DNA from: a virus
Lineage: Duplodnaviria; Caudoviricetes
Strand: one strand, 5' to 3'
Virus record (IMG/VR): IMGVR_UViG_3300006169_000108
Span: 1 to 33,512 of that record
Length of the DNA stretch: 33,512 nucleotides
A program made the position numbers and the translations under genes. Position 1 is the first letter of the stretch; each line of letters opens with the position of its first letter. The notes below the pieces were generated by a model. The model was given only the letters and a program-made list of their open reading frames with translations, did not search any database and was not told the DNA's origin. This document shows, piece after piece, positions 7,686-31,294 of this stretch.

Positions 7686-7853
7686 GTGGACACGCCTCCG
7701 ACCTACGCCTACGAGGAACTCCGCACCGCAGCCAAGCTGATCAAAGACCGGCACGGCGAGCGCCTCGACCGCGAGACCGCGCAGGCCGCGCTGCTGCTGG
7801 CCCGCTTCGTCGACACCTACCTCGACCTGAACGACGAAACCGAGGGCCGCTAA
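7686..7853 (+). CDS. Small hypothetical protein (55 aa), absent from the ORF track
   Basis: MDTPPTYAYEELRTAAKLIKDRHGERLDRETAQAALLLARFVDTYLDLNDETEGR; -10 TAGGCT (7674-7679) 6 nt before GTG; high GC3. Confidence 0.65.
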   Translation: MDTPPTYAYEELRTAAKLIKDRHGERLDRETAQAALLLARFVDTYLDLNDETEGR

Positions 7854-10465
7854 CCACTCGCCCGCGGATCGTTCGGCGGCAACGGCGCCATCCGCAGCGC
7901 GCGCCGCTCCACCACCGTCGCCGCCCGCCGGCCCGCCACCCGCGCCGTGTTCAACGGGATCACCGATGCCCCATCACTCTCCTGGCGGGCAGACGGGCGC
8001 GACACCCGCACCTGCCCCCGCACCCCCTCCAGATGCGTGGTGAGCATGGCCAGGGTGTCGATCCGGTTCGGGGACTTCTGACCTTCCTGCCACGTGCAGT
8101 TGTGCACGAGCAGTCCCCCGGCGAAGAACTCGTGGTCCTCGGCCACTGTCAGGTCATACACCGGAACCGGCGGCCCGCCCACGGGCTCGACACTGAGCAC
8201 GGTCGTACTTGGCCCGTCGAGCCTCGGCGGTGTACCGAGCTCGCGCCTGCTCGCGGCGCCTGTCGGCGTTGTGATCCTCACGGCACTGCGCCGTGCAGTA
8301 CTTGGACCGCTGCCCAGTCGAGAGGAACTCGCCGCTGCAATTGAGGCAGACGCGAGCGGTGGGCTTTCGGGTGGCCCACTCGTCACGTCGATGCGCGCTG
8401 CGAGTGTTGGCATCCCAGGCTGACCAGCCTCGGTCAGGTGCGTGGAGAGCAGCGTGCTCTCCGGCGGGCATGGCGCGCAGGTTGTCAGGGCCGTTGTTGG
8501 ACTTGTCCTCGTCCTCGTGGTGAACCTCCCACCCCTCGGGGATGTCACCGTGCACTGAGCTCCATATGTCGCGATGGAGCAGGCGCTGACGCTCGCCCGC
8601 TCGCTGGCGGTGCTTGTAGTAGCCGTCCTTGTCGAGGGCGTAGTCCCGACCTTCGAAGGTGACATATTGGCGGGTGCGAGGCCGGGGCACGCCACCATTC
8701 TATGTCCTGGGGTGATAAACCGGAGCTGCTTCCAGCCGTGACCCTCCACCCACATCCGGTGCTCCGGAGTCGCCCGCACCACGTGGCCATCCGCGGTCCG
8801 CACCTCGAGCAGCTCCCGCACCCCGGTCTGCCCCGACCACGTCACTGCGCGCCACCCGCTACGCGTCAGTACGCGATCACGAGTCGTCACCTGCTCGATG
8901 GACTTCTGGCCCATCTCGGTCAGCACCGGCGTGCCAGCCGGGAAGCACGCCTCGAACTCCAACCGGGCCAACCGGCCCAACATGCACGCCCGACCCGTCT
9001 CGAACGCGCCCGCCACACTCTCCGCCCGAACCCGCTTCGACTGCTTCGGAGTAATGCTCACGACCCGCGGGCCCGTCGACCCGGCGTCGACGATCTGGCG
9101 GAACACCGGCAGCAGGTCGAACAGCTCCTTGAACTCCCCGGCCTGCTCGTCGCCGCGGGCGCGGAGCTCCTCGAGCGCGAAGTGCGGGCGGGAGTCGTCC
9201 CCGTTGGCCAGCTTGTCGTCGGGCACGTCGGCCAACGCCACCGCCTGCCGGTAGAGCCTCGCCCACGCGTCCGGGATCGAGGTGCGCATGCCCAGGTTGT
9301 GTTCCTGCACGATTCGCGCCGCCCCGTGCCGCACCCACGCCAAACATGCCTTGCGTGCCCACGCCGCCTGCGACAACTGGCCGGACAGGTCGTCGGTGAA
9401 CACGATCTTGCCTGAGCGGGTCACGCCGGCCACCAGGATGCCGGCCGCGTCGCCCTTGCCGGTGTCGGCCGGGTCCACCCCGACGGCCACCATCTCGAAG
9501 GCCGGGCGCTTGTCCTCGGGGATGCGATGCTGGTCGAACCAGGCGTACTGGAAGATGCCGCCCTCGAGCGGGGCGGGCCGACCCTGATACAGGGCAGCGA
9601 AGTCCCGCTCACCCACATCGGCGCGGACCTGCTCCCAGTCTTTCGTGGTCCGGCCCCGCGCGGAGATCATCCACTCGCCGGCGGGGCGCTCGAGCGCGTC
9701 CTCGGTCTCCCCGTCGGCCAGGGCGGGGATGTTCACCAGCGGCCAACCCTGCTCGATCATCCGGCCGGACAGGTCGTCTTCGTGCCATCTGGTGGCGATG
9801 ATCATCGCTGGGGAGCCCGGGGCCAGACGAGTACGCGCGACCGACGTCCACCACTCGTGCAGGTTTTCCCGCACCGCCTCACTGTCGGCCTGCTCCCGGC
9901 CCTTGAGCGGGTCGTCCACGACCAGCACATCGGCCGGGCGACCAGTCAGGGCGCCACCCACACCGACCGAGTACAGCCCGCCCTTGCGACCCTCGATGCC
10001 CCAGTCAGTGGCGTCCTGGTGGGACTTGTCCAGCGGCAGGCACAGCTCCGGATGGGTACGCAGCATGTTCCGCACGTCGCGGCCGGTGCGGCGCGCCAGG
10101 GTCTGCGCGAAGCTGATGTTGACGATGCGACGGTCCGGGTTGTCACACAACATCCACACGATCAACCACTGCAGCAGCGAACTCTTGCCCTCCTGCGGGC
10201 TCATCGAGATCACCAGCCGGCCGTCGTGGGTCGTGACGGTGTCCCGCATCTTCCGCGCAATCAGCTCCAACGCGGGGGTGCGCTTCGTGCGCATGTCGAA
10301 CCGCTCCGCGAAATCCAGCGCCGTCGGATGCTGCTCCACCAGCACCCGCCGGTTCCCGCCCGGATCCCGCGCCAGCAGGGCGTCCCGCTCGCGGCGCAGC
10401 TCCTGCAGACGTTGCAGCTTCGCCAGCCGCACCGCGGGCAGGCTCCCCGGATCGTCGGTGGTCAC
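7850..10465 (-). CDS. terL: Terminase large subunit, intein-containing
   Basis: Walker A ISMSPQEGKS, Walker B VLVVDDP, TRWHEDDL, ALYQGRP, nuclease GVDP...SPNRID; GTG start 7 nt after -10 TAGCGT. Confidence 0.92.
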   Translation of the reverse strand: MTTDDPGSLPAVRLAKLQRLQELRRERDALLARDPGGNRRVLVEQHPTALDFAERFDMRTKRTPALELIARKMRDTVTTHDGRLVISMSPQEGKSSLLQWLIVWMLCDNPDRRIVNISFAQTLARRTGRDVRNMLRTHPELCLPLDKSHQDATDWGIEGRKGGLYSVGVGGALTGRPADVLVVDDPLKGREQADSEAVRENLHEWWTSVARTRLAPGSPAMIIATRWHEDDLSGRMIEQGWPLVNIPALADGETEDALERPAGEWMISARGRTTKDWEQVRADVGERDFAALYQGRPAPLEGGIFQYAWFDQHRIPEDKRPAFEMVAVGVDPADTGKGDAAGILVAGVTRSGKIVFTDDLSGQLSQAAWARKACLAWVRHGAARIVQEHNLGMRTSIPDAWARLYRQAVALADVPDDKLANGDDSRPHFALEELRARGDEQAGEFKELFDLLPVFRQIVDAGSTGPRVVSITPKQSKRVRAESVAGAFETGRACMLGRLARLEFEACFPAGTPVLTEMGQKSIEQVTTRDRVLTRSGWRAVTWSGQTGVRELLEVRTADGHVVRATPEHRMWVEGHGWKQLRFITPGHRMVACPGLAPANMSPSKVGTTPSTRTATTSTASERASVSACSIATYGAQCTVTSPRGGRFTTRTRTSPTTALTTCAPCPPESTLLSTHLTEAGQPGMPTLAARIDVTSGPPESPPLASASIAAASSSRLGSGPSTARRSAVRITTPTGAASRRELGTPPRLDGPSTTVLSVEPVGGPPVPVYDLTVAEDHEFFAGGLLVHNCTWQEGQKSPNRIDTLAMLTTHLEGVRGQVRVSRPSARQESDGASVIPLNTARVAGRRAATVVERRALRMAPLPPNDPRASG
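8099..8947 (-). mobile_element. Intein (283 aa) in the terminase nuclease domain
   Basis: Block A CFPAGTPV, block B ATPEHRMW, block F VYDLTV, block G LVHN followed by Cys+1. Confidence 0.92.
8154..8690 (-). CDS. HNH homing endonuclease nested in the intein in a different reading frame
   Basis: GY...LHRDIW...IPEGWEVHHEDEDKSNNGPDNL...EHAALH plus CLNC...YCTAQC zinc finger; -10 TAGAAT (8697-8702) 6 nt before GTG. Confidence 0.88.
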   Translation of the reverse strand: MPRPRTRQYVTFEGRDYALDKDGYYKHRQRAGERQRLLHRDIWSSVHGDIPEGWEVHHEDEDKSNNGPDNLRAMPAGEHAALHAPDRGWSAWDANTRSAHRRDEWATRKPTARVCLNCSGEFLSTGQRSKYCTAQCREDHNADRRREQARARYTAEARRAKYDRAQCRARGRAAGSGV

Positions 10466-10505
10466 CCCGGCGACGCTAGGCCGCCGGGGCGTCACCACTG
10501 GCCGG

Positions 10506-11072
10506 TCATTCGGGGGTGCGACGGGCCCGTGTGCAACGCCTGCACTGCCGAGCACCTGTGCTCGGGATGATGTACACGTCCGCCTGAGGGCCTGAAAGTG
10601 GATGGTTGCGCTTGCACTCAGTCATAGCCCGGCGGCGATGGCGCACGCCCGTGGGCGTGGCCTCGTTGTTCTGCGTCGGAGTCTGAAGCACTAAGTGATC
10701 CGGGTTCACGCAACGACGGTGCAGGCACGCCCGCCCGCCAGGGCAGTCGACGGATCTGTCGTGGCACGCGTGACCCACGTGCATCCCGGCAGGAATGGCC
10801 CCATGGGCGCGCTTGAAGGCTTCTCGGTGTGCCCCACCCCCTCGGGGGAGCAGGCCGTACCCGTCACGAGTGCCGACGCATCCCCTCCAGAGCCAGCACC
10901 CGGGAAGGGTCTCCTTGTCGAGAGAGTCGAAATGGCGATCAGCTCGGACTAGTCCGAAGCCGGAAAGAGTTCCCTCGGCACGGTGTCGGCGATAGCAAGC
11001 ACTGCATAAGCCACGTCCAGCAACCGGCATCATCCTGTCGCAACTACGACAGGTGACCAAGGTCCTCGGCAC
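10506..11072 (-). CDS. Free-standing HNH endonuclease
   Basis: CWLWRG...DGYG...AHR...HACH...CVNPDHL...QNN and C-terminal CKRNH...RQCRRC; -10 TACTAT 6 nt before GTG. Confidence 0.88.
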   Translation of the reverse strand: MPRTLVTCRSCDRMMPVAGRGLCSACYRRHRAEGTLSGFGLVRADRHFDSLDKETLPGCWLWRGCVGTRDGYGLLPRGGGAHREAFKRAHGAIPAGMHVGHACHDRSVDCPGGRACLHRRCVNPDHLVLQTPTQNNEATPTGVRHRRRAMTECKRNHPLSGPQADVYIIPSTGARQCRRCTRARRTPE

Positions 11073-11095: not shown

Positions 11096-11674
11096 TTACG
11101 CGAGGCGTGCGAAGACGATCACTTGCGAAAGATACGAGTGCGCGGACCGGTCGAGGTCGCCGCCGCAGGTCACCAGCCGCAGCTCCGGACCGTCGGTGTC
11201 GGAGTACACCTCGCGGGTCGGGAAATCCGCCTTGTCCACCGTCTGCGTCCGCGTCACCGCGAACCGCTTGGTCCCCTGCGGAGTATCGACAGTGATCTCG
11301 TCACCCGCAGCGAGAGTGTGGAACCCGGCCCCGAACCCCGGGCGGCCACCACCGTTGACGTGCGCCAACACCACCGCCGGGCCATCCTCACCCGGCCTCG
11401 GGCCCCGCTCGTACACACCGGCCTGCATCGGCTGCGCCAACGGCGGCACCTGGATGGTGCGATCCGGGTTCAACCCCACCCCCACCAGGGACGACGACAC
11501 CCCCAACGTCGGAATCGACACCCGAAACCCGTCCAGCGCCGAAGGCTGCTGAACCTGCTGGGCGGCCGCCACCGACCCCGCACCCTGCGGCGGGGCGGGA
11601 TCGGTGGCGGTGCTGCAACCGGCCGCGAGCATCACCGCGAGAACGGTGGTGGCAAAGATGCCCGCCGGCCGCAT
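11096..11674 (-). CDS. Class F sortase (lipoprotein)
   Basis: Lipobox LAAG-C; GPRPGEDGPAVVLAHV (catalytic His), LRLVTCGG (catalytic Cys), KADFPTREVY. Confidence 0.88.
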   Translation of the reverse strand: MRPAGIFATTVLAVMLAAGCSTATDPAPPQGAGSVAAAQQVQQPSALDGFRVSIPTLGVSSSLVGVGLNPDRTIQVPPLAQPMQAGVYERGPRPGEDGPAVVLAHVNGGGRPGFGAGFHTLAAGDEITVDTPQGTKRFAVTRTQTVDKADFPTREVYSDTDGPELRLVTCGGDLDRSAHSYLSQVIVFARLA

Positions 11675-12533: not shown

Positions 12534-13016
12534 CTAGGGGGCAGCCACCCCGGCCTCGGGCTCCGCGGTCGCCTGCAGCGCCTCCAACTCCCTGGTGAGC
12601 GCGGCGATCTCCTGACCCACCTTGTCGATCGTCACCACCTGCGTCGGCGCGTCCAGGCCCAGCAGCTTCGCCTTACGCTCCGCCCACGCCCGAATCGTCG
12701 ACCACGCCTCAATCCGCGTCCGGGGCAACACGTCCTCATCTCTGGCAATGATCATCAGGTCGGCGGTGGCGTCATCGACCAACATGAGCTCCTCGGCGCG
12801 ATGCTCATCCACATGCTGCGCCGGAATCTCGGCCAGAGCTCGGTTGTAGTCGACACGGCACTTGCGCTCGTCGACATGCACCGCCTTCGCGATCTCCGCC
12901 CACGTCATCCGCTGGCGGCGCAGCTCCACGATCCGCGCCGTGCGCTGCTGCACCTCCACCGTCCGATCCGACACCGGACTGTTCGCCACCGCGCGCGCCT
13001 GCGACCGCTTACTCAC
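12534..13016 (-). CDS. terS: Terminase small subunit (HTH)
   Basis: ELRRQRMTWAEIAKAV HTH and RKAKLLGLDAP motif; first gene of the packaging module; -10 TACCGT 7 nt before GTG. Confidence 0.7.
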   Translation of the reverse strand: MSKRSQARAVANSPVSDRTVEVQQRTARIVELRRQRMTWAEIAKAVHVDERKCRVDYNRALAEIPAQHVDEHRAEELMLVDDATADLMIIARDEDVLPRTRIEAWSTIRAWAERKAKLLGLDAPTQVVTIDKVGQEIAALTRELEALQATAEPEAGVAAP

Positions 13017-13074
13017 GCCACGCACGGTAGAACCGTGGGCCGGTCGCGCCGGGGGGTTACACGGGGCACCCGCC

Positions 13075-13086
13075 ATGCGCTAGAGT
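13075..13086 (+). promoter_or_regulatory. ATGCGCTAGAGT motif, copy 2
   Basis: 6 nt before GTG at 13093. Confidence 0.65.
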
Positions 13087-13092
13087 ATTGAT

Positions 13093-13287
13093 GTGACCGT
13101 CGACCTGCCCATCCCCGACGCCGCCCTCCAACACCGCGCCGTCCAACGAGGCTGGATCACCGAACACGACGTCGCCACCCTCGCCCGACCCGTCGTCGTC
13201 GCCTACCTGCGGCAGATGTGCCCAGGGGACTACATGACCCGTCGAGACATCATGGTCCTCGCCGACGAACTGGAGAACCAGCAGTGA
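13093..13287 (+). CDS. Small hypothetical protein
   Basis: First of five translationally coupled ORFs. Confidence 0.7.
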   Translation: MTVDLPIPDAALQHRAVQRGWITEHDVATLARPVVVAYLRQMCPGDYMTRRDIMVLADELENQQ

Positions 13288-13523
13288 GCACCGACCTGAC
13301 CGTTCCGAGGTCGTCGTACGACGCGCTGATGCTCTGCCTCGACGAGCACCACGGCATCCACGGCTCCGTGTGCGTCCGAGACATCGCCGCACCCATCATC
13401 GCCGCCGAGCTTCGCCTCTGGACGGAGTACATCGAGGCGTACTTGCCCGACGATGTTCCCTCAATCCAAACGCTCTTGTCCGACCTGCGCGACCGCGCCG
13501 ACGAACTGGAGGCTGGGCGATGA
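13284..13523 (+). CDS. Small hypothetical protein
   Basis: GTGA overlap; IAAPIIAAELR...RADELE. Confidence 0.7.
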   Translation: MSTDLTVPRSSYDALMLCLDEHHGIHGSVCVRDIAAPIIAAELRLWTEYIEAYLPDDVPSIQTLLSDLRDRADELEAGR

Positions 13524-13687
13524 TCCGCACGCGGTTGCTCCGGAAGATCGGCCACACGTGCCGACCGCCGCGCAAGGTGCTCGGCCAGCCGTACTGGACG
13601 TGCTGGTGTGGCCAGCAGTGGACGTCGGTGTTCGTGCCGTTGCGCGGGTTCCGCTGGTTCCGCGCCGAACTGGAGGTAGACGCGTGA
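13520..13687 (+). CDS. Small Cys/His protein
   Basis: ATGA overlap; HTC...WTCWCGQQW. Confidence 0.65.
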   Translation: MIRTRLLRKIGHTCRPPRKVLGQPYWTCWCGQQWTSVFVPLRGFRWFRAELEVDA

Positions 13688-13929
13688 CCCTCGACGCCCC
13701 CGACCCCGACGTCACCCAACCCGACATCCCCGACCAGACGCACGAGGTGCTGACCTCCGTAGCTCCACACCTCGACGTCCCCGAGACGAGAACGCGGATC
13801 ATCGCCGCCATCGCCGGCCCCGTCGTCACCGCCGCACTCACCAACATCGCCAACCGCATCGAACACCACGACACCGCCGACCAGATCGTGCGCATGATCC
13901 ACAACGAACGGAAGCGGTGGCAGCAGTGA
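13684..13929 (+). CDS. Small hypothetical protein
   Basis: GGAGG RBS, GTGA overlap. Confidence 0.7.
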   Translation: MTLDAPDPDVTQPDIPDQTHEVLTSVAPHLDVPETRTRIIAAIAGPVVTAALTNIANRIEHHDTADQIVRMIHNERKRWQQ

Positions 13930-14168
13930 GCGAGGCCCGCCCCGACATCATCCGGTTCGGCCCCGACCTCGCCATCTCCTGGGAGGCCTACAAGCAAGGC
14001 ATAAACGAAGCCGACGTCCCCGAAGGCACCTACCTCATCCGCAACCAAGCCGGCAACCTCGCCCTCATCGACACCGAAGGCAACTACCGCGGGTTCATCG
14101 ACACCACGGCCGGACACGTCGACGTCATCGCCAACCGAGACAGCGGCGACACCCACACCCCGCCCTGA
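13926..14168 (+). CDS. Small hypothetical protein
   Basis: GTGA overlap, high GC3. Confidence 0.7.
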   Translation: MSEARPDIIRFGPDLAISWEAYKQGINEADVPEGTYLIRNQAGNLALIDTEGNYRGFIDTTAGHVDVIANRDSGDTHTPP

Positions 14169-14229
14169 GCCACGCATGCGCTAAAGCGCGAAGTTGGTGG
14201 TGCGGGAGAGCTCAGATTTTGTGAGGTCG

Positions 14230-15280
14230 AAGGGCGAGCGCAGCGAGCCCGCGTCGCCGGTTCGGCGGCGAAACCCCGCTAGGGGTTGAGCTGGCGTGCC
14301 GGCGGCGTGTCGGCGCGGAGCGACGGCACGGTCGCGTGAAGCGAAGCGAACGCGTCCGTGTCGTCGCGGAGCGTCGTGCGTTCGCTTGTCGCGCTAGCGA
14401 CATGCGAACGCTTGTTGTCGAGCGGTAGCGAGACGGTGTCTGTGCGAAGCGCGTCGTGTTCCCCCTGTGAGCGAAGCGATGGGGGGAACACGGCGTGGTG
14501 AGCTCCGAGCACTGCGTAGCAGTGCGCCCGCCGGTAGGCGGGCCCTTGGTTGGGGCCCGCCTCGAGCGGGTTAGTGCATGTCGGTGCCTTCGCAGTTGGG
14601 GTTGGTGGTTTCGATGTCGCCGAATTCGGTGAGGCGGCAGGTGCAGAGGGGGGTGCCGGTGCGGTCGCGGGGGGCGGTGGCGGGGTAGGTGGTGAGGTCG
14701 TCGTTGTTCATGGAGAATACGAAGCATGGCATGACGGAATGGCAAGGGGGGAAAGGATGATGTTTTCAAGGAGCGCAGCGACTGCTTTGAAAAGATCATT
14801 CGTACCCTTGCTATGGAGGATTGCCGTGCGACTATTCGTGAATGAACAGCGTCGTCCTCATCATCTACTTCGCTGCCGCACCTGGTGACTGTGTCGGCAC
14901 GTTTGCACCGGTCGTCGACGGTGGCGCGGAACCCTGGCTCGAGCCGGCGTGCACGCCCGTGTTGGGCGGGTGCGAGCGCAGCGAGCGCGTAGGCCGCGGA
15001 GCGGCCCCTCGCCGTAGGCGAGTGTCCTGCGCTTGGAGCGACGTAGGAGCGACGCGCAGGGCCTTTTCCGCGCGGTAGCGCGGGGGTCACAGTGCGAGGC
15101 GGCGGGGCCGTGGTGCAGCGAAGCGAACCACGGGCGCGGCGGCGACGCTCCGGGCCTCGCCGTAGGCGAGGGCATCCCCGGAGGGGATGGGAGGCCTTCG
15201 GCCTCTTGGTGCTCGCTTCGCTCGCTCTTCTATCGCCTCGCTATCGCTCGGCTTTGCACAGCGCCCGGGGGGCGCTGTGC
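14230..15280. other. Array of GNA/GNNA-capped DNA hairpins (structured non-coding region)
   Basis: 11 GCGNAGC heptamers on + between 14238 and 15124, most capping stems, several flanked by tandem GA; polarity switches to - after ~15190. Confidence 0.8.
14571..14711 (-). CDS. Possible 46-aa protein embedded in the hairpin array
   Basis: MNNDDLTTYPATAPRDRTGTPLCTCRLTEFGDIETTNPNCEGTDMH; strong C-ending codon bias; hairpins are absent over this stretch. Confidence 0.5.
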   Translation of the reverse strand: MNNDDLTTYPATAPRDRTGTPLCTCRLTEFGDIETTNPNCEGTDMH

Positions 15281-15356
15281 CGCCGTGGTGGACCGTTGGG
15301 TGTGGGTGGTGTTGGGCGGCTCACCGGTTGCTTTGGTGGTCTCGAGCAGGGCGGCG

Positions 15357-15500
15357 TTAGTCGCTGTTGTGGGGGGCGCGGTGTCGGCCTTCGAGGCCCC
15401 AGGTGCGGGCGGCGTGTTCGAGCTCTGACCACCAGATGGCGATGTGGTCGCTGACGCCGTCGCCGGCGGTGATCTCGCGTTGGTGCTTGTTCTCTGCCAT
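15357..15500 (-). CDS. Small hypothetical protein (47 aa)
   Basis: MAENKHQREITAGDGVSDHIAIWWSELEHAARTWGLEGRHRAPHNSD; variant motif ATGCCCTAAACT (15508-15519) 7 nt upstream. Confidence 0.55.
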   Translation of the reverse strand: MAENKHQREITAGDGVSDHIAIWWSELEHAARTWGLEGRHRAPHNSD

Positions 15501-15626
15501 GCCTTATAGTTTAGGGCATAGCGGGGTGTTGGGCAACCCCTTGATGTCCCCACCCCCACCTGCTACGCTCTACGGTGTACGGGCAGTGTGCCCGTCCCTC
15601 TCACAGCACAGCAAGGACTCCCTCTC

Positions 15627-16820
15627 ATGGACACCCTCACCCTGCCCACGCAGACCCGCATCACCAAGGAGCAGCAGCGCCTCAACGAGATCGAGGCGAT
15701 CTTCCGCCGCTTCATGCACTTCCCCCACGAGCACGCCTACACGGTCGCCACCCTGTGGGTCGCCCACACCCACCTGCGCGACAAGGAAGAGAACTTCCTT
15801 CCCTACGTCACGCCCCGCCTGTATTTCGGTTCGAAGCGACCCGGTTGCGGCAAGACGCAAGCCATGGAACTCGCCGCGCTGATGAGCTTCAACGGCGAGC
15901 TCACGCTGAACCCCACCGAGCCGGGCCTGGTGTCCAAGTTCCACAACGACAAGGCCACCGTGTGCCTCACCGAGATCGACAAGTTTTTCGGTGAGCGCGG
16001 CGGATCGAAGGAGGGCCACAAGGCCGTCATCAACGGCGGCTACCGCCGCAACGCCACCGTGGACCGTGAGCGGGGCGGTGTGACCGAGAAGCGCCGCATC
16101 CACGGGCCGATGGCGCTGGACGGCAAGAACGCCAAGCGCTTCCTGGAGGAGGACGGCCCGTTCGACGCCGTCCGTAGCCGCTCGATTGCGATCATCTTGG
16201 ACCGCAAGCCGGACGACGTGCACGTCGCCGAATACGACCCGCAGCGCGACGAGCAGCGGCTGCGTGCGATTTCGGCTCGCCTGGCCGAGTGGGGCACCCG
16301 CAACGCCCGCCACATCCTGGCGCGCAACATCAACCCGCTGGTCCCCGCCGGCATCAAAAACCGCGACAAGGAAACGTGGCGCGTGCTGTTCCAGGTGGCC
16401 GCGCATGTGGGCGGCGAGTGGGTCGACCGTGTCACGGCCGCCGCGCGGGCGATCGTGCTGGGTGAGTGGGGCGACGACGCGCCCCGCAAGCTGTCCTACG
16501 CCGAGGAGCTTCTCGCCGCCGCACGCGGCGCCTACAGCCCGGATGAGCACTTCCTGCCCACCCGCACCCTCGTGGCCCGCCTGATGGGCGTTGACGGGTG
16601 GTGGCGTCAGGAGTGGTGCTCGCCGCGCGCCGCCTCGATGTCGCTGGCCGACGAGCTGGGCACGTTCGGGGTGGCGGCCACCCGCGAGTACGTGGACGGC
16701 CGCCAGGAACGTGGCTACGCGCTGCTCGAGCTGCTGGACGTCGACGACGAGCCCGAGCCCGAGGACGAGCCGGTGGTGGATGTGGCCGAGTGGGACTGGT
16801 CCGAGCTCGACGACGAGTGA
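15627..16820 (+). CDS. DUF3631-type P-loop ATPase / helicase-like protein
   Basis: LWVAHTH, TPRLYFGSKRPGCGKT (Walker A), CLTEID (degenerate Walker B), INGGY, SRSI, C-terminal wHTH-like region ending RGY. Confidence 0.75.
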   Translation: MDTLTLPTQTRITKEQQRLNEIEAIFRRFMHFPHEHAYTVATLWVAHTHLRDKEENFLPYVTPRLYFGSKRPGCGKTQAMELAALMSFNGELTLNPTEPGLVSKFHNDKATVCLTEIDKFFGERGGSKEGHKAVINGGYRRNATVDRERGGVTEKRRIHGPMALDGKNAKRFLEEDGPFDAVRSRSIAIILDRKPDDVHVAEYDPQRDEQRLRAISARLAEWGTRNARHILARNINPLVPAGIKNRDKETWRVLFQVAAHVGGEWVDRVTAAARAIVLGEWGDDAPRKLSYAEELLAAARGAYSPDEHFLPTRTLVARLMGVDGWWRQEWCSPRAASMSLADELGTFGVAATREYVDGRQERGYALLELLDVDDEPEPEDEPVVDVAEWDWSELDDE

Positions 16821-16866
16821 GACAACCAAGACAACCTCGCGTCGGCAAGACAACCAAGACAACCTC
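16820..16866 (+). repeat. 19-bp direct repeat AGACAACCAAGACAACCTC x2 (four AGACAACC units)
   Basis: 16820-16838 and 16848-16866. Confidence 0.85.
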
Positions 16867-16882
16867 ACGCAAGGAGACCTCG

Positions 16883-17062
16883 ATGAGCATCCCCGCAGAC
16901 CACGTCCGTGTCGGCGACCGTGTCGCCACCCTGGGCCGGGTTACCGCCATCAGCTACGGCGGGCACTGGACGATCCTGACCACCGCTGCCGGCGACTTCC
17001 TCGCCAACGGGTCGATCGTCAACCTGGACCGGCATAGCGCGGTGCATCTGCGCCGGGCGTGA
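16883..17062 (+). CDS. Small hypothetical protein
   Basis: AAGGAG RBS; MSIPADHVRVGDRV... Confidence 0.7.
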   Translation: MSIPADHVRVGDRVATLGRVTAISYGGHWTILTTAAGDFLANGSIVNLDRHSAVHLRRA

Positions 17063-17070
17063 CCGGCGAC

Positions 17071-17110
17071 AGGGCCCCCGCATCTTCCGGGTGTGGGGGC
17101 CTTGCTTTAT
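17071..17110 (+). terminator. Intrinsic terminator
   Basis: AGGGCCCCCGCATC/GGTGTGGGGGCCTT stem plus T-rich tail. Confidence 0.75.
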
Positions 17111-17118
17111 CCCCTGCT

Positions 17119-17130
17119 ATGCGCTAGAGT
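17119..17130 (+). promoter_or_regulatory. ATGCGCTAGAGT motif, copy 3
   Basis: 6 nt before ATG at 17137. Confidence 0.65.
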
Positions 17131-17136
17131 AAGCCC

Positions 17137-17424
17137 ATGAGCAAGAGGACCCGCCGCCGCCGCCCCTTCGCCACCCGCGACGCCAGCACCGGCGCCACCC
17201 TCCTCATCCTCTGGGCCCTCCTCGTCGCCCCCTTCTACGTCTGCTACTGGCTCATCGCCGGCCCCATCAAGCTCGTCATCTGGGCCGTGCGACAGATCAA
17301 CGAAGGCGACGCACGCCACCGCGCACGCACCGGCACCCTCACCTACGCAGACCTCCGCAACGACGCCGAACGCGCCGCGTGGAACCAGGCCTACGCAGCC
17401 CAACTCGCCCGCCAGACCCGCTGA
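17137..17424 (+). CDS. Small membrane protein
   Basis: Hydrophobic stretch LLILWALLVAPFYVCYWLIAG; leaderless start. Confidence 0.7.
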   Translation: MSKRTRRRRPFATRDASTGATLLILWALLVAPFYVCYWLIAGPIKLVIWAVRQINEGDARHRARTGTLTYADLRNDAERAAWNQAYAAQLARQTR

Positions 17425-17444
17425 CCCCACACAGGGAGACCGAC

Positions 17445-17615
17445 ATGAACCCCAACCGCGAAATCCCCAGCGGCCTGCGCTGCCACGACTGCGGCGAAAA
17501 CCTCTCCAGCGTCGTCCACAACGGCTGGGCCACCCTCATCCACACCAGCCACCGCACCGACCACCCCGTCCGCTACCGCGTCACCGCCCAAGCCTGGACG
17601 CAGGCCGGCCGCTAG
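17445..17615 (+). CDS. Small CxxC protein
   Basis: GGGAG RBS; CHDC. Confidence 0.65.
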   Translation: MNPNREIPSGLRCHDCGENLSSVVHNGWATLIHTSHRTDHPVRYRVTAQAWTQAGR

Positions 17616-17649
17616 ACCCGCTGACCCCTCACAGACAGGAGCACCGACC

Positions 17650-17823
17650 ATGACCGGCCTCGAAGCCCTCACCCCCTACGAGCTCGCCATGACCTACCGC
17701 GACGTCGCCACCGAACGCTGCACCACCTGGGAGCAGGACGACCGCCGGCAGCGCTACCTCGCCCGCATCAGCGCCGAAATGGACCGGCGTGACGTCCGAC
17801 TCGAGGACTGGGCCGGGCTGTAA
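17650..17823 (+). CDS. Small hypothetical protein (57 aa), absent from the ORF track
   Basis: AGGAG RBS; MTGLEALTPYELAMTYRDVA...DWAGL. Confidence 0.7.
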   Translation: MTGLEALTPYELAMTYRDVATERCTTWEQDDRRQRYLARISAEMDRRDVRLEDWAGL

Positions 17824-17838
17824 CCCCCGCTGCGTTCG

Positions 17839-17875
17839 GCGGCCCGCACCCCCTGGTGCGGGCCGCTTTTCGTTT
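17839..17875 (+). terminator. Intrinsic terminator
   Basis: GCGGCCCGCACC/GGTGCGGGCCGC stem plus TTTTCGTTT. Confidence 0.85.
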
Positions 17876-18011
17876 GTCTACGGGTCGGCGTCGTGTCGAC
17901 GCGTGGCTGTAGAACGTGCGGACGACGTCTAAGTGGGAGTGGACTCCCCTATCTCCGTATGCTATGCTCTAAATCAGCACGCAGGACAGGCCCTCTCGCT
18001 AGGAGAAGAAC

Positions 18012-18149
18012 ATGCTCGAGCACTTCGTTCTCGTCCACGCCGGCAGTGGGCGCGCCCTCTACGCGCACCCCAGCTTGGCGGCAGCCAAGGCGCAGCTCGC
18101 CGCCGAGTTCAGCCCCGGTCACGTCGTCATCGAGCGTCGCTGGCTCTAG
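18012..18149 (+). CDS. Small hypothetical protein (45 aa), absent from the ORF track
   Basis: AGGAG RBS; MLEHFVLVHAGSGRALYAHPSLAAAKAQL...RRWL. Confidence 0.65.
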   Translation: MLEHFVLVHAGSGRALYAHPSLAAAKAQLAAEFSPGHVVIERRWL

Positions 18150-18153
18150 ATCA

Positions 18154-18197
18154 CGGCAGGGCCCCTGTGATGGTCAATCGGGGGCCCTGCCGGTTTT
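18154..18197 (+). terminator. Intrinsic terminator
   Basis: CGGCAGGGCCCC/GGGGCCCTGCCG stem plus GTTTT. Confidence 0.75.
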
Positions 18198-18247
18198 CCT
18201 CGCCAGCCGACACCAACCAGCACCCGCCCTCTCACGCAGGAGAAACC

Positions 18248-18415
18248 ATGCAGGTCCAGTACCAGGTCCGCAGCAACGCCGGCCAGGTCATGTACCAGTC
18301 CCCCGACGTCGATGACGCCCAGGACAGCGCCGACGACTACGCCGCCCAGGGCTGGCGCGTGTATGTCACGTTCGTCGAGCTCATCGACGGCCAGTGGGTC
18401 GCCCAGGAGGACTGA
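18248..18415 (+). CDS. Small hypothetical protein
   Basis: AGGAG RBS; MQVQYQVRSN... Confidence 0.7.
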   Translation: MQVQYQVRSNAGQVMYQSPDVDDAQDSADDYAAQGWRVYVTFVELIDGQWVAQED

Positions 18416-18459
18416 CCACCCCCGCACACCTTCCGCCCCTCTCACCAGCAGGAGAAATC

Positions 18460-18699
18460 ATGAGCCAGAACTCGCACACCACCCGCATCAACCAGACCGC
18501 CGAGTTCCTCCCGCAGACCAACGACGACGAGCGGCCGGCCCTCCGCGTCAACGACGCGCTCGTCTTCGCCTACCTCACCGAGGACGACGGGGGCAACGTC
18601 GTCCTGCGCGTCACCGTGGACCTCGACGACGTGGAGCTCGACGGGGCACCCCTGGGTGTCCAGGTCGCGGTGGGCGACGAGGTGGTCTACGAGGCCTGA
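18460..18699 (+). CDS. Small acidic hypothetical protein
   Basis: AGGAG RBS; MSQNSHTTRIN... Confidence 0.7.
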   Translation: MSQNSHTTRINQTAEFLPQTNDDERPALRVNDALVFAYLTEDDGGNVVLRVTVDLDDVELDGAPLGVQVAVGDEVVYEA

Positions 18700-18717
18700 C
18701 CGCTCCACCCACACCAC

Positions 18718-22237: not shown

Positions 22238-22277
22238 TGAATCTCCTTCGATGAGACGGTCGCCGGGCCATGGCAGC

Positions 22278-22590
22278 GCGCAGCCGCGAAGCGGAGCGAG
22301 AGCGGCGGAGCGCATCGCCCTCGCCCACTCCACGACCCCCTCCCCCCTACGGGGAGCGCGCGCGCGTGCCCGCGTGCATGATCGACTGTTCGTTGTCAAG
22401 AAAAAATCCGTGGAGTCGGTGACGATCTCGGTCGAAGACCGTGGAGTCGCCTGACCTGCCCTAATGGATGGCACCGTGGAGTTCATCGGAGGGCACTCCA
22501 CGGACACTGGATGGGCGGCAAGATCACGACACCTGGCGCGTGGACTATAGAAAAAAGTTGCGTGGAGTACACTTCTAGGACTCCATGCGG
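22278..22590. other. Putative replication origin: CGTGGAGT iterons, A-tracts and a GNA hairpin cluster
   Basis: CCGTGGAGT at 22408, 22439, 22474; CGTGGAGT at 22561; inverted copies at 22327 and 22495; four GCGNAGC in 22278-22311. Confidence 0.6.
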
Positions 22591-22967
22591 GGGGCCACGT
22601 AGCGGTGCTCGAACCCTCGACGAGCTCGCGCGGACGGCACCTGCAGCACCTGGATCAGGCCGTCATCCACTGCGCGCTGAAGCTTCCGCCGCACCCGCTC
22701 CACCGCCGCATCGGTAGGCCGTCCACCAGGGACGAGACGGTCGGTGACCTCACGGGCCGACCACTCCCTCTCGGGTTCACCGAGCACCACGCTCGTCGGG
22801 TCAGTGTCAGAGGGAAGATCAGCGCGCTCTGGCTCGACCACGGCGACCGCCATGCATGCATGCACCACCGACGTCCATGCGTGGACCGCGTCCCACGACC
22901 CCAGTTCGGCTGCGTGCTCCGCCTCGGTGGCGGCCACCTGTGCCCGGCGCACAAACCCCATATCCAT
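22575..22967 (-). CDS. Stand-alone paralogue of the helicase C-terminal (wHTH-like) domain
   Basis: REWSAREV...PTDAAVERVRRKLQRAVDDG versus helicase REWSARDV...PTDAAVERVRRRLSTAVDRG; -10 TATCAT 6 nt before ATG. Confidence 0.75.
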   Translation of the reverse strand: MDMGFVRRAQVAATEAEHAAELGSWDAVHAWTSVVHACMAVAVVEPERADLPSDTDPTSVVLGEPEREWSAREVTDRLVPGGRPTDAAVERVRRKLQRAVDDGLIQVLQVPSARARRGFEHRYVAPRMES

Positions 22968-23011
22968 GGGAATATGATAGCACGTATCCACACATATCCC
23001 CACGGTGTGGG

Positions 23012-24499
23012 TTATGGATTCCACGACGTGCCGCCCTCGACATCGTCGAAGATGAACCGGTACTCCAGACCGGACTGCGACCGCGTCGACGGGTAACCAA
23101 CCCGGCGAAGAACTCCACGATCAACCGCCGTGGACAGCCGCCGCCTCACCCGCTCCACAGCCGCATCCGTCGGCTTACCGGTGCCATCACCCAAGGTCAT
23201 CGCAACGTCCCTGGCTGACCACTCACGACCCGGCGTGTTCCGCAGAACCACCACTGGATCGTCATCGGCGAACACCGTGGTCCGGCCACAGTCATGATCG
23301 TGGTGCAGCTTCAGCGGCCCCACCATCTCGTGCGGCTGCTTCAGGTGACGGAACTCCACGACGAGGTCTCCGGCCTCGCCCCACACCAGGAACACCGACC
23401 CCACCCCGGCGGTGAGCTCCATCCCCCCGTGCACATCAGCCAAGGTCTTGGGCGCGGACCCGGCGGCGCCCTTCTTCACCTGGTGGGCAACCTCCACCAC
23501 CTCGATACCGGCAGCCAAGGCACGCTGACGGGCCCGGTTGTACCAACCCGCCGTCTCCGAGTCGGTCAACCCGATCGCGGCGTCCTTCACCGAGTCCACC
23601 ACCAGCGTGTCCGCGCCGGCCTTCTCCGCCAGCACCCGCAACATCTCGGGCGCCTTCGCCACATCCGCGGGCGGCGGGCCCGGCCACACCACCAGCCGCT
23701 CGTCCAACAAGTCCTTGTCGCCGTCGTCGACCATGCGGCGCAGCGAGCGGGCGATCTGCCGTGGCCGGTCCATCGCCAAATACAGCACCCTCGAGCGGGT
23801 CGGCAGCACCGGGAACCCCAGGAAGTCATCAGCCAACCCGACCCGGGCCAACACCAACTGCTGGGTGACGGTCGTCTTCCCCACCCCGGGCGGGCCCACG
23901 ATCATGAGTGCTTCCCCGGCGGCCCACAGCACGCTGGTGTCTTTGCCCCACAGGGCGGGTTCCACCGGGGGCACGTCGAAAATGAACTGGCCACCCGACT
24001 GGTAGCGGGCGAACGGGTCCACCGCAGTCTGGTCGTCGTCTTCCGGGGTGATGATGGTGCCCGGGGCTGCGTCGGCGTCGTTGACGTGCAACGTGAACGC
24101 CGGCCCCACCTCCGGGTTCAGCTGTACTTGCCTGGGACTGACACCGCCGTCCCGCAACGCCCGCGGCACCGTCTGCGCGATCTCGGTCGGGTTCCGGCCG
24201 CACAGCTCGGCAGCGGTCCGCAGCTGCTCCCACGCCGTTTCGGCGCCCACGTGCCCGGCCGCGACCAGCTGCCCGATCTTGTAGGCGGCCCGGTTCAACG
24301 TGTCGTTGCGGGTGCCTTCCGCCGCGCGGGCCACCTCGGCGCACTCGGCCTCGAGCGCGGCCTGCCCGTAACGCGCGGCGGCCGGGTCCCCGGGCGCGGC
24401 GGTCGGTCCGGTGGGCAGGGTGGTGACCGGGCGGGGTGGTTCGTCGTCGATGAACCCGGCCTGGCGCAGTTGGCGCAGGAACGGGTGGTCGGCGCTCAC
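23012..24499 (-). CDS. AAA (RepA/DnaB-like) replicative helicase with N-terminal primase C-terminal-like domain
   Basis: EGTRNDTLN; Walker A GPPGVGKT; VLYLAMD; Walker B LVVDS. Confidence 0.85.
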   Translation of the reverse strand: MSADHPFLRQLRQAGFIDDEPPRPVTTLPTGPTAAPGDPAAARYGQAALEAECAEVARAAEGTRNDTLNRAAYKIGQLVAAGHVGAETAWEQLRTAAELCGRNPTEIAQTVPRALRDGGVSPRQVQLNPEVGPAFTLHVNDADAAPGTIITPEDDDQTAVDPFARYQSGGQFIFDVPPVEPALWGKDTSVLWAAGEALMIVGPPGVGKTTVTQQLVLARVGLADDFLGFPVLPTRSRVLYLAMDRPRQIARSLRRMVDDGDKDLLDERLVVWPGPPPADVAKAPEMLRVLAEKAGADTLVVDSVKDAAIGLTDSETAGWYNRARQRALAAGIEVVEVAHQVKKGAAGSAPKTLADVHGGMELTAGVGSVFLVWGEAGDLVVEFRHLKQPHEMVGPLKLHHDHDCGRTTVFADDDPVVVLRNTPGREWSARDVAMTLGDGTGKPTDAAVERVRRRLSTAVDRGVLRRVGYPSTRSQSGLEYRFIFDDVEGGTSWNP

Positions 24500-25191
24500 G
24501 CCGCCCTGCTCACCGCCGACGGGGCCTGCCCGGCGGGCTGGCCGGTGAGCGCGGGTGAGGGGCGCACCGACCACCCGTAGGAACCCTCCGGGCGGCGTGA
24601 CGGGGGGGCGACGATGTAGCCGCCCCGGCCGCGGTAGTCGAGGCCGGGGCGGAACCCGGCCATGTTGCCGCCGCCGGTGGCGGCGACCAGCACGTGCTGC
24701 CCGTGGGGGGTGACCGCGAGCCCGTGGATGTCGCCGAGGCCGCCGGAGTCACGCAGATCCACCCAGGACCAGATGCCGCCGGGGGTGTCCATGTCGACGT
24801 CGATGACGTCGAACGCGTGCCCGGTGGGCAACCCGATGTTGGCGTCCGGCTGGTTACGCCACCACGCTTCGATGGTTGCCCGGTCGGTCGAAGCGTCTTT
24901 GAACCCGTGGGCGGTGGCGGGAGTCTTCCCGCCGGGCTTGAGGGGGAACACGGGCCAACCCCACGCGGCGTAGGCCAGGGCGGCGGCGCGCAGGTTGACC
25001 GGGCGACGGTCGTGGTTCTCGAGGGCCTGCGCGAGCCGGTCGATGCGCTGCTGATCCTCGCCTTCGCAGGCGTCGAGGAACCGTGCGGTGAGCTCGTCGA
25101 GGCTGGTTTCGCATCCGGGGTGCGCGGTCTGTCCGTGGTCGACGACGGTCAACCAGGTCCCGCACGTGATGCACGTCGAAAAGGTGGTCAT
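24496..25191 (-). CDS. Bifunctional DNA primase/polymerase (Prim-Pol domain)
   Basis: ALAYAAWGWPVFPL, HGFKDAS, ANIGLPTG, VIDVD, TPHGQH, GLDYRGRGGYIVAPPS. Confidence 0.9.
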   Translation of the reverse strand: MTTFSTCITCGTWLTVVDHGQTAHPGCETSLDELTARFLDACEGEDQQRIDRLAQALENHDRRPVNLRAAALAYAAWGWPVFPLKPGGKTPATAHGFKDASTDRATIEAWWRNQPDANIGLPTGHAFDVIDVDMDTPGGIWSWVDLRDSGGLGDIHGLAVTPHGQHVLVAATGGGNMAGFRPGLDYRGRGGYIVAPPSRRPEGSYGWSVRPSPALTGQPAGQAPSAVSRAA

Positions 25192-25304
25192 GGCGCCTTC
25201 TTGGCTGGGTAGCGGAGTGGGGAGCTGCACTACGAGGGGTGGAGGGTGCTGCCGGGCCCGGGGCGCCCCCGATGCGTCCCGGGCCCGGCAGCGGTCAGTG
25301 CGCC

Positions 25305-25694
25305 CTAGAAGGGCACGTCCGTGTCGCGCTTGCCGTCCAGGTACGACCTGGCGGCGACCTTGTCGTCGTCGGTCGGGTCGGCCATCTGCCACGGCGCGGA
25401 CTGGCCGGGCTTCTTCACGCCCTGACCGAGCCGGCCCAGGTTCATCCGCCCGGTGCCGGCGTTCTTACGGACCTGCGACTGCAGCACACGGGGGAAGATC
25501 AGCGTGTCGGTGATCTCCTCCGGGGCGCCCGGCCCGTCGAGGACGACGATGTCGGCGCGGATCGCGCTGGTGGCGCCGTAGGAGGTGGTGATCTCGTCGA
25601 CCACCTCGGTCGGCTTCACCAGCAGCAGACGCCCGTTGAGCTCGTCCCACTTGAGGCCGGACGACGACGACGGGGCGTCGAAAAGGTCAGTCAT
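25305..25694 (-). CDS. Probable single-stranded DNA-binding protein
   Basis: Beta-rich ~129 aa with acidic DTDVPF C-terminus; lies between exonuclease and primase. Confidence 0.55.
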   Translation of the reverse strand: MTDLFDAPSSSSGLKWDELNGRLLLVKPTEVVDEITTSYGATSAIRADIVVLDGPGAPEEITDTLIFPRVLQSQVRKNAGTGRMNLGRLGQGVKKPGQSAPWQMADPTDDDKVAARSYLDGKRDTDVPF

Positions 25695-31245: not shown

Positions 31246-31282
31246 GTGGTTCTCCTCGGGGTGTCTCAGTGCCTGTAGCTAT

Positions 31283-31294
31283 ACTCTAGCGCAT
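31283..31294 (-). promoter_or_regulatory. ATGCGCTAGAGT motif, copy 4
   Basis: Intergenic, oriented towards the gene starting at 31245. Confidence 0.65.

Follow-up and report, generated by a model that had tools for sequence, protein, structure and literature searches.

Gene setting of the hairpin array

The virus record IMGVR_UViG_3300006169_000108 is 33,512 bp long, and the stretch analysed here, referred to as the window, is the entire record. It is a partial genome of an uncultured actinobacterial tailed phage. Genes for a head protease, the portal, the large terminase subunit (terL) and a terS-like protein are located on the minus strand. A block of small plus-strand genes at 13093-18700 includes a DUF3631 gene. 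Beyond this block, the minus strand encodes RusA, an AAA_25 helicase, a Prim-Pol, a phrog_870 protein and an exonuclease. The features referred to below are as follows.

7850-10555, minus strand: terL, with an intein-like insert (profile matches)
12534-13076, minus strand: terS-like gene (phrog_645; PHROGs label RNase E)
14229-14248, plus strand: 20-mer with the first GA-capped GCGCAGC hairpin, mirrored by 15211-15230 on the minus strand
14232-14543, plus strand: cluster A, eight strict GNA/GNNA hairpins, several with tandem GA/GA caps, long stems with G·T pairs
14571-14732, minus strand: 53-codon ORF inside the array (called by the source; GC3 0.91; singleton)
14749-14807, plus strand: long AT-rich stem with a GA-GCGCAGC-GA cap (14769-14783)
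14786-14865, no strand: most AT-rich 80 bp in the window (46% GC), also promoter-like
14972-15189, plus strand: cluster B, seven strict hairpins, with a GTA-loop hairpin twice (15007 and 15155)
15191-15252, minus strand: cluster C, three hairpins (GAA, GA-capped GAA, GA-capped GATA)
15256-15280, no strand: perfect 11-bp GC hairpin, no GNA loop
15357-15500, minus strand: 47-codon ORF (called by the source; singleton)
15627-16820, plus strand: DUF3631 (RepAM-like) P-loop ATPase (E 2.8e-20)
16820-16864, plus strand: four direct AGACAACC repeats, iteron-like, their sole occurrence within the window
23012-24502, minus strand: AAA_25 (RepA-like) helicase (AAA_25 match E 8.8e-15)
24496-25392, minus strand: Prim-Pol (AEP primase-polymerase; PF09250, E 2.5e-32)

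We infer the terS role of the gene at 12534-13076 from its position upstream of terL. In Lilbeanie, a gene likewise labelled RNase E precedes terL. Hint and splicing matches in the terL insert are below the cut-off, and the insert is absent from the 588-residue terL of G001, the closest relative of the phage. A sortase-domain gene (11096-11674, minus strand) and a proline/threonine-rich, secreted-looking neighbor are both located between terL and the terS-like gene. The sortase gene is present in G001, G003 and G004, at another location.

The real start of the Prim-Pol is probably near 25190. The AAA_25 helicase matched nothing among PDB sequences at an E value of 0.01. Immediately downstream of its gene, an AT-rich palindromic tract (22950-23010) is an alternative origin candidate. 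Four plus-strand GCGNAGC are clustered at 22277-22311, just upstream of the probable start of an HTH gene.

A promoter-like motif, TATGCGCTAGAGT, recurs with variants ahead of small genes (13076-13088, 14175-14187, 15562-15575, 17118-17130, 17960-17972 and 31280-31294), and similar motifs are found in G001. Genes behind it share a CCTCTCAC...AGGAG leader. A sigma-70 scan returned zero strict promoters, and a tRNA scan was empty.

A dense hairpin array that switches strand

Of the 25 strict GNA/GNNA hairpins in the whole 33.5-kb window (stricter detector), 19 are in 14232-15252. The original prediction described a kilobase array of about 20 stem-loops whose polarity flips near 15190. The number and the flip are borne out. 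Sixteen hairpins are on the plus strand, followed by three on the minus strand (15191-15205, 15211-15225 and 15235-15252), and the switch is located at 15190. However, the array is not continuous. It is composed of three clusters split by the 53-codon ORF and the AT-rich stem, with cluster A (14232-14543) kept apart from clusters B and C (14972-15252). No homologue of the 53-codon ORF was found. The GCGNAGC sites named in the prediction (14238, 14315, 14341, 14366, 14444, 14471, 14514, 14773, 14976, 14996 and 15118) are exact and on the plus strand, and the minus-strand GCGNAGC at 15215-15221 is present. The two arms are unequal, about 960 nt on the plus strand and about 60 nt on the minus strand. 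The 20-mers at the array edges, 14229-14248 (plus) and 15211-15230 (minus), are mirrored and identical at 18 of 20 positions.

The density and strand bias exceed those of shuffled controls, as anticipated. GCGNAGC occurs in 14230-15190 11 times on the plus strand and never on the minus strand (shuffles: mean 1.35, maximum 6). GNA/GNNA hairpins with a stem of at least 4 bp occur there 13 times on the plus strand and never on the minus strand (shuffles: mean 0.74, maximum 5). None of the 1000 dinucleotide shuffles equals the observed GCGNAGC or hairpin count. Over the whole window, GCGNAGC shows mild enrichment only (62 versus 46 ± 7); the enrichment is a local signal. Among perfect hairpins with a stem of at least 5 bp, a GN(N)A loop on one strand is found in 10 of 14 in the array and 12 of 162 elsewhere. 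Folding with DNA parameters, which had been proposed as a check, gave z-scores of -7.9 (14225-14580) and -5.8 (14930-15290). The 19-hairpin array is real and unusually dense, and its mechanism is a proposal.

Folded DNA or RNA

GCGNAGC and GCGNNAGC are described as nuclease-resistant DNA mini-hairpins that bind SSB poorly and are known from the G4 origin, RSF1010 ssiA and the N4 promoters (PMC13037366). The six tetraloops in the array are GCTA (two), GGTA (three) and GATA. None is a GNRA loop, because all six carry T at the third position. The remaining loops are C(GNA)G triloops, and a UUCG loop is found in no perfect hairpin.

Pairing in cluster A differs between the strands. The plus strand folds with 11 G·T pairs at -126 kcal/mol, and the minus strand with none at -106 kcal/mol. 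Tandem GA/GA caps form on the plus strand and are impossible on the minus strand. A folded single strand is therefore favored over a cruciform. Since GNRA tetraloops are lacking and the stems contain strand-specific G·A and G·T pairs, the array best fits folded single-stranded DNA. The proposal that the region functions in this form is strengthened by the DNA-type loops, the strand-specific pairing and the occurrence of the GA-capped unit near ssDNA-virus origins. It is tempered by the RNA fold z-score of -10.2: the region folds better as RNA than as DNA.

The RNA fold raises the possibility, which we consider improbable, that the clusters are structured RNA, either 3' tails or small RNAs. Clusters A and B would belong to rightward transcripts and cluster C to a leftward transcript of the ORF at 15357-15500, and the switch at 15190 would be the meeting point of convergent transcripts. 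Consistent with this arrangement, cluster A comes after a plus-strand operon ending at 14168, and cluster C is downstream of a minus-strand ORF. G·U and tandem G·A pairs are also frequent in RNA. However, the absence of GNRA among the six tetraloops argues against it, and GNA triloops on 2-bp stems are a DNA-stable motif. An Rfam 15 scan gave no matches at the gathering score and one 21-bit chance match (E 0.32). The 11-bp hairpin at 15256-15280, probably a terminator-like boundary, stands between the minus-strand ORF and cluster C. In addition, such hairpins in other phages (L161, L163) are antisense to both flanking genes.

The hairpins with GGA and GAA triloops resemble the hairpin promoters of the N4 virion RNA polymerase. 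Unlike N4, the window contains no such polymerase, and the neighboring genes carry repeated host-type promoter motifs.

The same hairpin unit in other viruses

The exact first hairpin of the array was found at no fewer than 134 viral loci, of which 47 were mapped and 113 neighboring ORFs scanned. Three settings are seen among the matches listed: ssDNA viruses, tailed phages and dispersed copies.

At eight of the nine loci examined among the matches listed, GGGC-GA-GCGNAGC-GA-GCCC is followed within 6 nt by a conserved CTTG...ACACTTAA motif. This motif may represent a rolling-circle nick region. Five of the nine loci have Zot and Rep genes, one is the inovirus RSM1, and four are near-identical to each other. 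The RSM1 intergenic region contains a 19-nt GA-capped GCGCAGC hairpin identical to that in the window. At the CRESS locus L001, the hairpin is about 45 nt from TAGTATTAC. Of 14 small loci, 9 have a loose nonanucleotide pattern on the same strand as the hairpin, often at a distance. Cluster C has a weak resemblance at 15193-15227 to a microvirus intergenic stretch on the gene-sense strand (35 nt, 89%, E 0.09). In RSM1 and at the G4 complementary-strand origin, GNA mini-hairpins are on one strand, whereas the window has them on both. The window's hairpins are not followed by a nick-like motif, no HUH Rep is found among the 35 ORFs of this partial contig, and the genome is dsDNA with a terminase and a portal.

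Dispersed copies of the exact hairpin are numerous in giant-virus records and in G032 (among the matches listed). Over 18 kb of G032 (L173), many genes are followed by GNA hairpins on a single strand, in a REP-like or priming-site pattern.

A second motif of two hairpins was found in 61 stretches. Its neighbors include RepL/ParA (L249), Prim-Pol-D5 (L218, L242), gp59 (L207) and terS genes, and most of the 61 loci have neighbors without an annotated family. At least two loci, L222 and L240, look like chance matches within genes. The GTA hairpin was also searched for in cellular genomes; none of 120 loci had more than four hairpins within 1.2 kb, and this search was not informative.

The plus-to-minus switch is also observed in L220 (G069), L206 and the cultured jumbo phage PaBG, and the reverse order in L234 and L209. 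In PaBG, the hairpin detector revealed a seven-hairpin plus-to-minus array 5 kb from the primase gene, within a 1.5-kb gap that has no annotation (L371 8668-9045, about 117.08-117.46 kb). The element in G069 (L220 5998-6190) is compact and contains plus-strand hairpins, a central inverted repeat and duplicated minus-strand hairpin modules. It resembles the arrangement in the window reduced to a minimum.

Relation to the terminase and genome ends

The switch at 15190 had also been proposed to be a genome end or packaging site, and our analysis weakened this claim. We regard a genome end or packaging-initiation (pac) region here as unlikely. After a cut and 5' resection, both 3' strands would bear nuclease-resistant hairpins, and the geometry of the array suits 3'-terminal strands. 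Relative to the terS-like gene, the array is antisense and 2.1 kb upstream. Among the matches listed, 25 of 40 records searched have the exact hairpin and a Terminase_6N match. In 15 of 18 tabulated terL records, the hairpin is 0.2-5.9 kb upstream of terL and antisense, as in the window. However, these 15 records collapse to about five terL lineages, set against three exceptions, and short contigs enter the viral collection partly for their terminase, which biases the proximity. Of the seven untabulated Terminase_6N records, G023 fits, and six have the hairpin at least 20 kb from terL. The two-hairpin motif, with positions relative to terL taken from locus ranges, is accompanied by a terL match in 6 of 43 records, and one of these six fits the upstream-antisense rule. 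As judged from these records, the position upstream of the terminase recurs in about five lineages and is not general. Because of this recurrence in other lineages, we kept the genome end as a rival.

In every member of a group of 10-13 kb viral records with terL (L152-L159, in G007, G020, G014, G028, G013, G041, G021 and G006), GA-capped hairpins are antisense to terL and upstream of it. The four records scanned for them have HK97-type capsid and portal genes, and none of the scanned ORFs of the group was recognised as a replication gene.

Additional observations argue against a packaging role. G001 has no array, even though its terL and terS are 78% and 58% identical to those of the window. 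The examined ends of cultured relatives are without a hairpin array as well. The nearest cultured terminases are cluster-B-like, and one such record is annotated as a circularly permuted genome. In PaBG, about 120 kb separate the switch from a weak terminase match (E 1.2e-5); no paper on the PaBG genome ends was found among open-licence papers. Terminase substrates and packaged DNA are double-stranded.

Two known types of genome end have features in common with the array. The T5 injection-stop and terminal-repeat end likewise spans a kilobase of structured, non-coding DNA next to small early-type genes. One plus-strand hairpin (10081) and one minus-strand hairpin (10239) flank the T5 repeat end at 10219, in favor of the genome-end reading, but a minus-strand hairpin at 9899 breaks the rule. 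Strict hairpins number three at 9.9-10.3 kb in T5, GA-capped units are lacking, and the T5 region is AT-rich and contains direct repeats. Streptomyces telomeres have GNA-loop hairpins with purine-purine pairs. The window also has such hairpins and pairs, on would-be 3' strands, but its array is internal, no long inverted repeat is located around 15190, no terminal protein was seen, and packaging is of the terminase type.

Distribution among relatives

G001 is 138.8 kb long, 99% complete and syntenic with the window. It has the same order of portal, terL, terS and cassette, with 69% identity in the portal and 58% in the DUF3631 protein. No array is found anywhere in its 138.8 kb, with at most two hairpins per 1050 bp, and the gap at the array site is about 200 bp. 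The helicase, Prim-Pol and phrog_870 genes of the window were not found in G001 (tblastn, 1e-4). The joint absence suggested that the array is linked to the replication module. We rejected the idea that it travels with the helicase, since none of 20 helicase-homologue loci has the array. All 20 have at most two strict hairpins per 1050 bp and at most one AGCGNAGCGA per whole record.

The search for conserved structure in related phages, called for by the original prediction, went against it: the array is absent from all relatives tested. Four whole DUF3631 phages including G001 have at most two strict hairpins per 1050 bp. Omega and Gaia have no array, nor do the examined ends of cultured terL and portal relatives. 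AGCGNAGCGA is not clustered in 17 of 18 cultured records; the full hairpin detector was applied to their ends and selected stretches. For the DUF3631 and helicase homologues, single-protein scans gave no loci and alignments were required. DNA searches returned no homologue of the array in phages (one chance match, E 0.4) or plasmids (short chance matches), and the combined window motif had no match in viral contigs. A metagenome scan yielded a single 1-kb contig with no flanks, and one DNA sequencing run with a small share of matching reads gave scattered short pieces; none of those listed covered the array, which is uninformative about it. As the array is absent from G001, the DUF3631 phages, the helicase loci and the examined cultured ends, it is specific to the phage's lineage.

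This distribution could mean that the array was captured or expanded recently and persists as a relic with little current role, derived for example from the single-strand origin of a rolling-circle element or from a non-autonomous hairpin element. We think this quite unlikely. The uniqueness of the array among all relatives tested, the short G001 gap, the singleton ORFs embedded in the array and the many dispersed copies of similar hairpins in giant-virus records and G032 are consistent with capture. However, the stems are near perfect and diverse in sequence, suggesting maintained selection. Plasmid and phage matches are absent, and we saw neither a transposase or integrase nor a target duplication. 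The similarity of the array flanks to the G001 gap is not significant (alignment score 28, shuffle maximum 31).

The DUF3631 gene and iteron-like repeats

The DUF3631 family corresponds to RepAM of actinomycete integrative elements (PMC3218068). RepAM lacks rolling-circle motifs and is reported to bind 8-bp repeats that are found at the 3' end of its own gene (PMC2440964). In the window, the AGACAACC repeats trail the DUF3631 gene. AGACAACC copies follow it five times in L135, four in L138 and three in L136, and L137 has four of a variant. Iteron-like repeats thus trail the gene in five of five phages (the window and L135-L138, where they are at about 11150-11330). G001 contains a second, distant DUF3631 paralogue (42756-43871), 30% identical.

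The AlphaFold model of the DUF3631 protein was computed from a 12-sequence input and has a mean pLDDT of 68.7. MCM subunits are its best but weak matches; one reaches E <0.001 (6e-4), with a TM score of about 0.3. This weakly suggests that the fold is nearest to MCM helicases.

The origin of the AICE RepAM element pMEA300 also has a DUF3631 protein whose gene bears identical 8-bp repeats at the 3' end. There, the repeats form a hairpin in which inverted copies flank a CTTGAT site. In the window, the four repeats are all direct, are located just past the stop codon and form no such hairpin; a CTTGAT sequence at 15540 has no flanking repeat copies and overlaps a promoter-like -35. The window also has its GNA array ahead of the DUF3631 gene, and four other phages with this gene have no array.

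Since the repeats are found in all five DUF3631 phages and the array in one, the iterons may be the conserved origin-like signal of these phages and the hairpin array a lineage-specific addition. Compared with the hairpin array, the DUF3631 protein and its iterons are better conserved, and together they are a candidate origin with a self-loading helicase.

A possible single-strand unwinding and priming region

We propose that the array is an ssi-like ssDNA unwinding and priming region for the phage Prim-Pol, a reading that we hold tentatively and at somewhat less than even chance. Opening of the duplex would be carried out by the DUF3631 MCM-like protein, the RepA-like helicase or transcription of the plus-strand operon. 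Each freed strand would fold into nuclease-resistant hairpins that bind SSB poorly. The hairpins would hold the opened strands apart and offer priming sites to Prim-Pol. Primers beside plus-strand hairpins would be extended leftward and those beside minus-strand hairpins rightward. As the plus-strand hairpins are left of 15190 and the minus-strand hairpins right of it, the primers would run apart, and continuous synthesis would diverge from the switch, as with ssiA/ssiB of RSF1010. Opening, in vivo folding and priming at the array are all steps that we infer.

Several observations support a priming region. The array contains DNA-type loops, a plus-to-minus switch, mirrored edge 20-mers and an AT-rich tract (14786-14865), which may be an unwinding element. 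The genome encodes a Prim-Pol and an AAA_25 helicase, and the adjoining DUF3631 gene is followed by iteron-like repeats. Comparisons with other viruses point in the same direction: the same hairpin unit is near putative rolling-circle motifs of inoviruses and the CRESS virus L001, cluster C weakly resembles a microvirus intergenic stretch, PaBG has a similar array near its primase gene, and the two-hairpin module occurs beside RepL/ParA, Prim-Pol-D5 and gp59 genes.

The main weakness of the priming reading is that the array co-occurs with none of the proposed proteins. In addition, 19 hairpins far exceed priming needs, the arms are very unequal, the iterons are about 1.6 kb from the array, and GC skew, which is gene-dependent, shows no origin switch. 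The even better fold as RNA also counts against it. Divergent priming by Prim-Pol, offered in the original prediction as an alternative to a genome end, is now the best explanation of the array, but a link to the helicase gene did not hold.

The closest known parallel is the oriV of the IncQ plasmid RSF1010, with ssiA/ssiB, the RepB' primase, the RepA helicase and RepC iterons. In RSF1010, two similar hairpin sites, one on each of the complementary strands, are exposed by the helicase, and the AEP primase starts just 3' of each hairpin (PMC8567376, PMC4234260); ssiA and ssiB are single 40-nt sites (PMC8567376). Like RSF1010, the phage has similar hairpin sites on both strands that carry a mini-hairpin cap, encodes its own AEP primase and has iteron-like repeats in the vicinity, and its AAA_25-type protein is a candidate RepA-like helicase. 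However, the window has 16 and 3 hairpins over 1020 nt in place of two 40-nt sites, and its iterons are distant. RepC is not among the 35 ORFs of this partial contig, and an MCM-like DUF3631 gene is present instead. Sequence similarity is nil, and the window belongs to a tailed phage. By analogy, the array would work like an ssi pair, yet its numerous sites, the lack of a RepC match in the partial contig and the remoteness of the iterons mean that it is not an IncQ origin.

Implications

Mini-hairpins at priming sites are known already. Among open-licence papers, none was found on kilobase two-strand arrays, or on GNA hairpin arrays, in tailed phages. More speculatively, and with a rather low probability, bipolar GNA mini-hairpin arrays could be an unrecognised, portable class of origin shared by ssDNA viruses, this phage, PaBG and G069. 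Here the array would be the priming half of a new replicon, in which an MCM-like RepAM/DUF3631 loader docks on the AGACAACC iterons.

To our knowledge, the origins of most large actinophages are unmapped. If the priming reading is true, the loop-and-strand signature could locate replication starts in uncultured phages. PaBG, a cultured phage with the same switch, is a ready experimental model. If the genome-end reading is true, the array would shield both 3' strands much as a telomere does, in a phage that packages its DNA by terminase. RepAM has lacked a mechanism, because it has no known rolling-circle motifs (PMC2440964). Whatever the array does, the iterons behind a predicted MCM-like DUF3631 protein offer a way to find out whether RepAM is a self-loading helicase.
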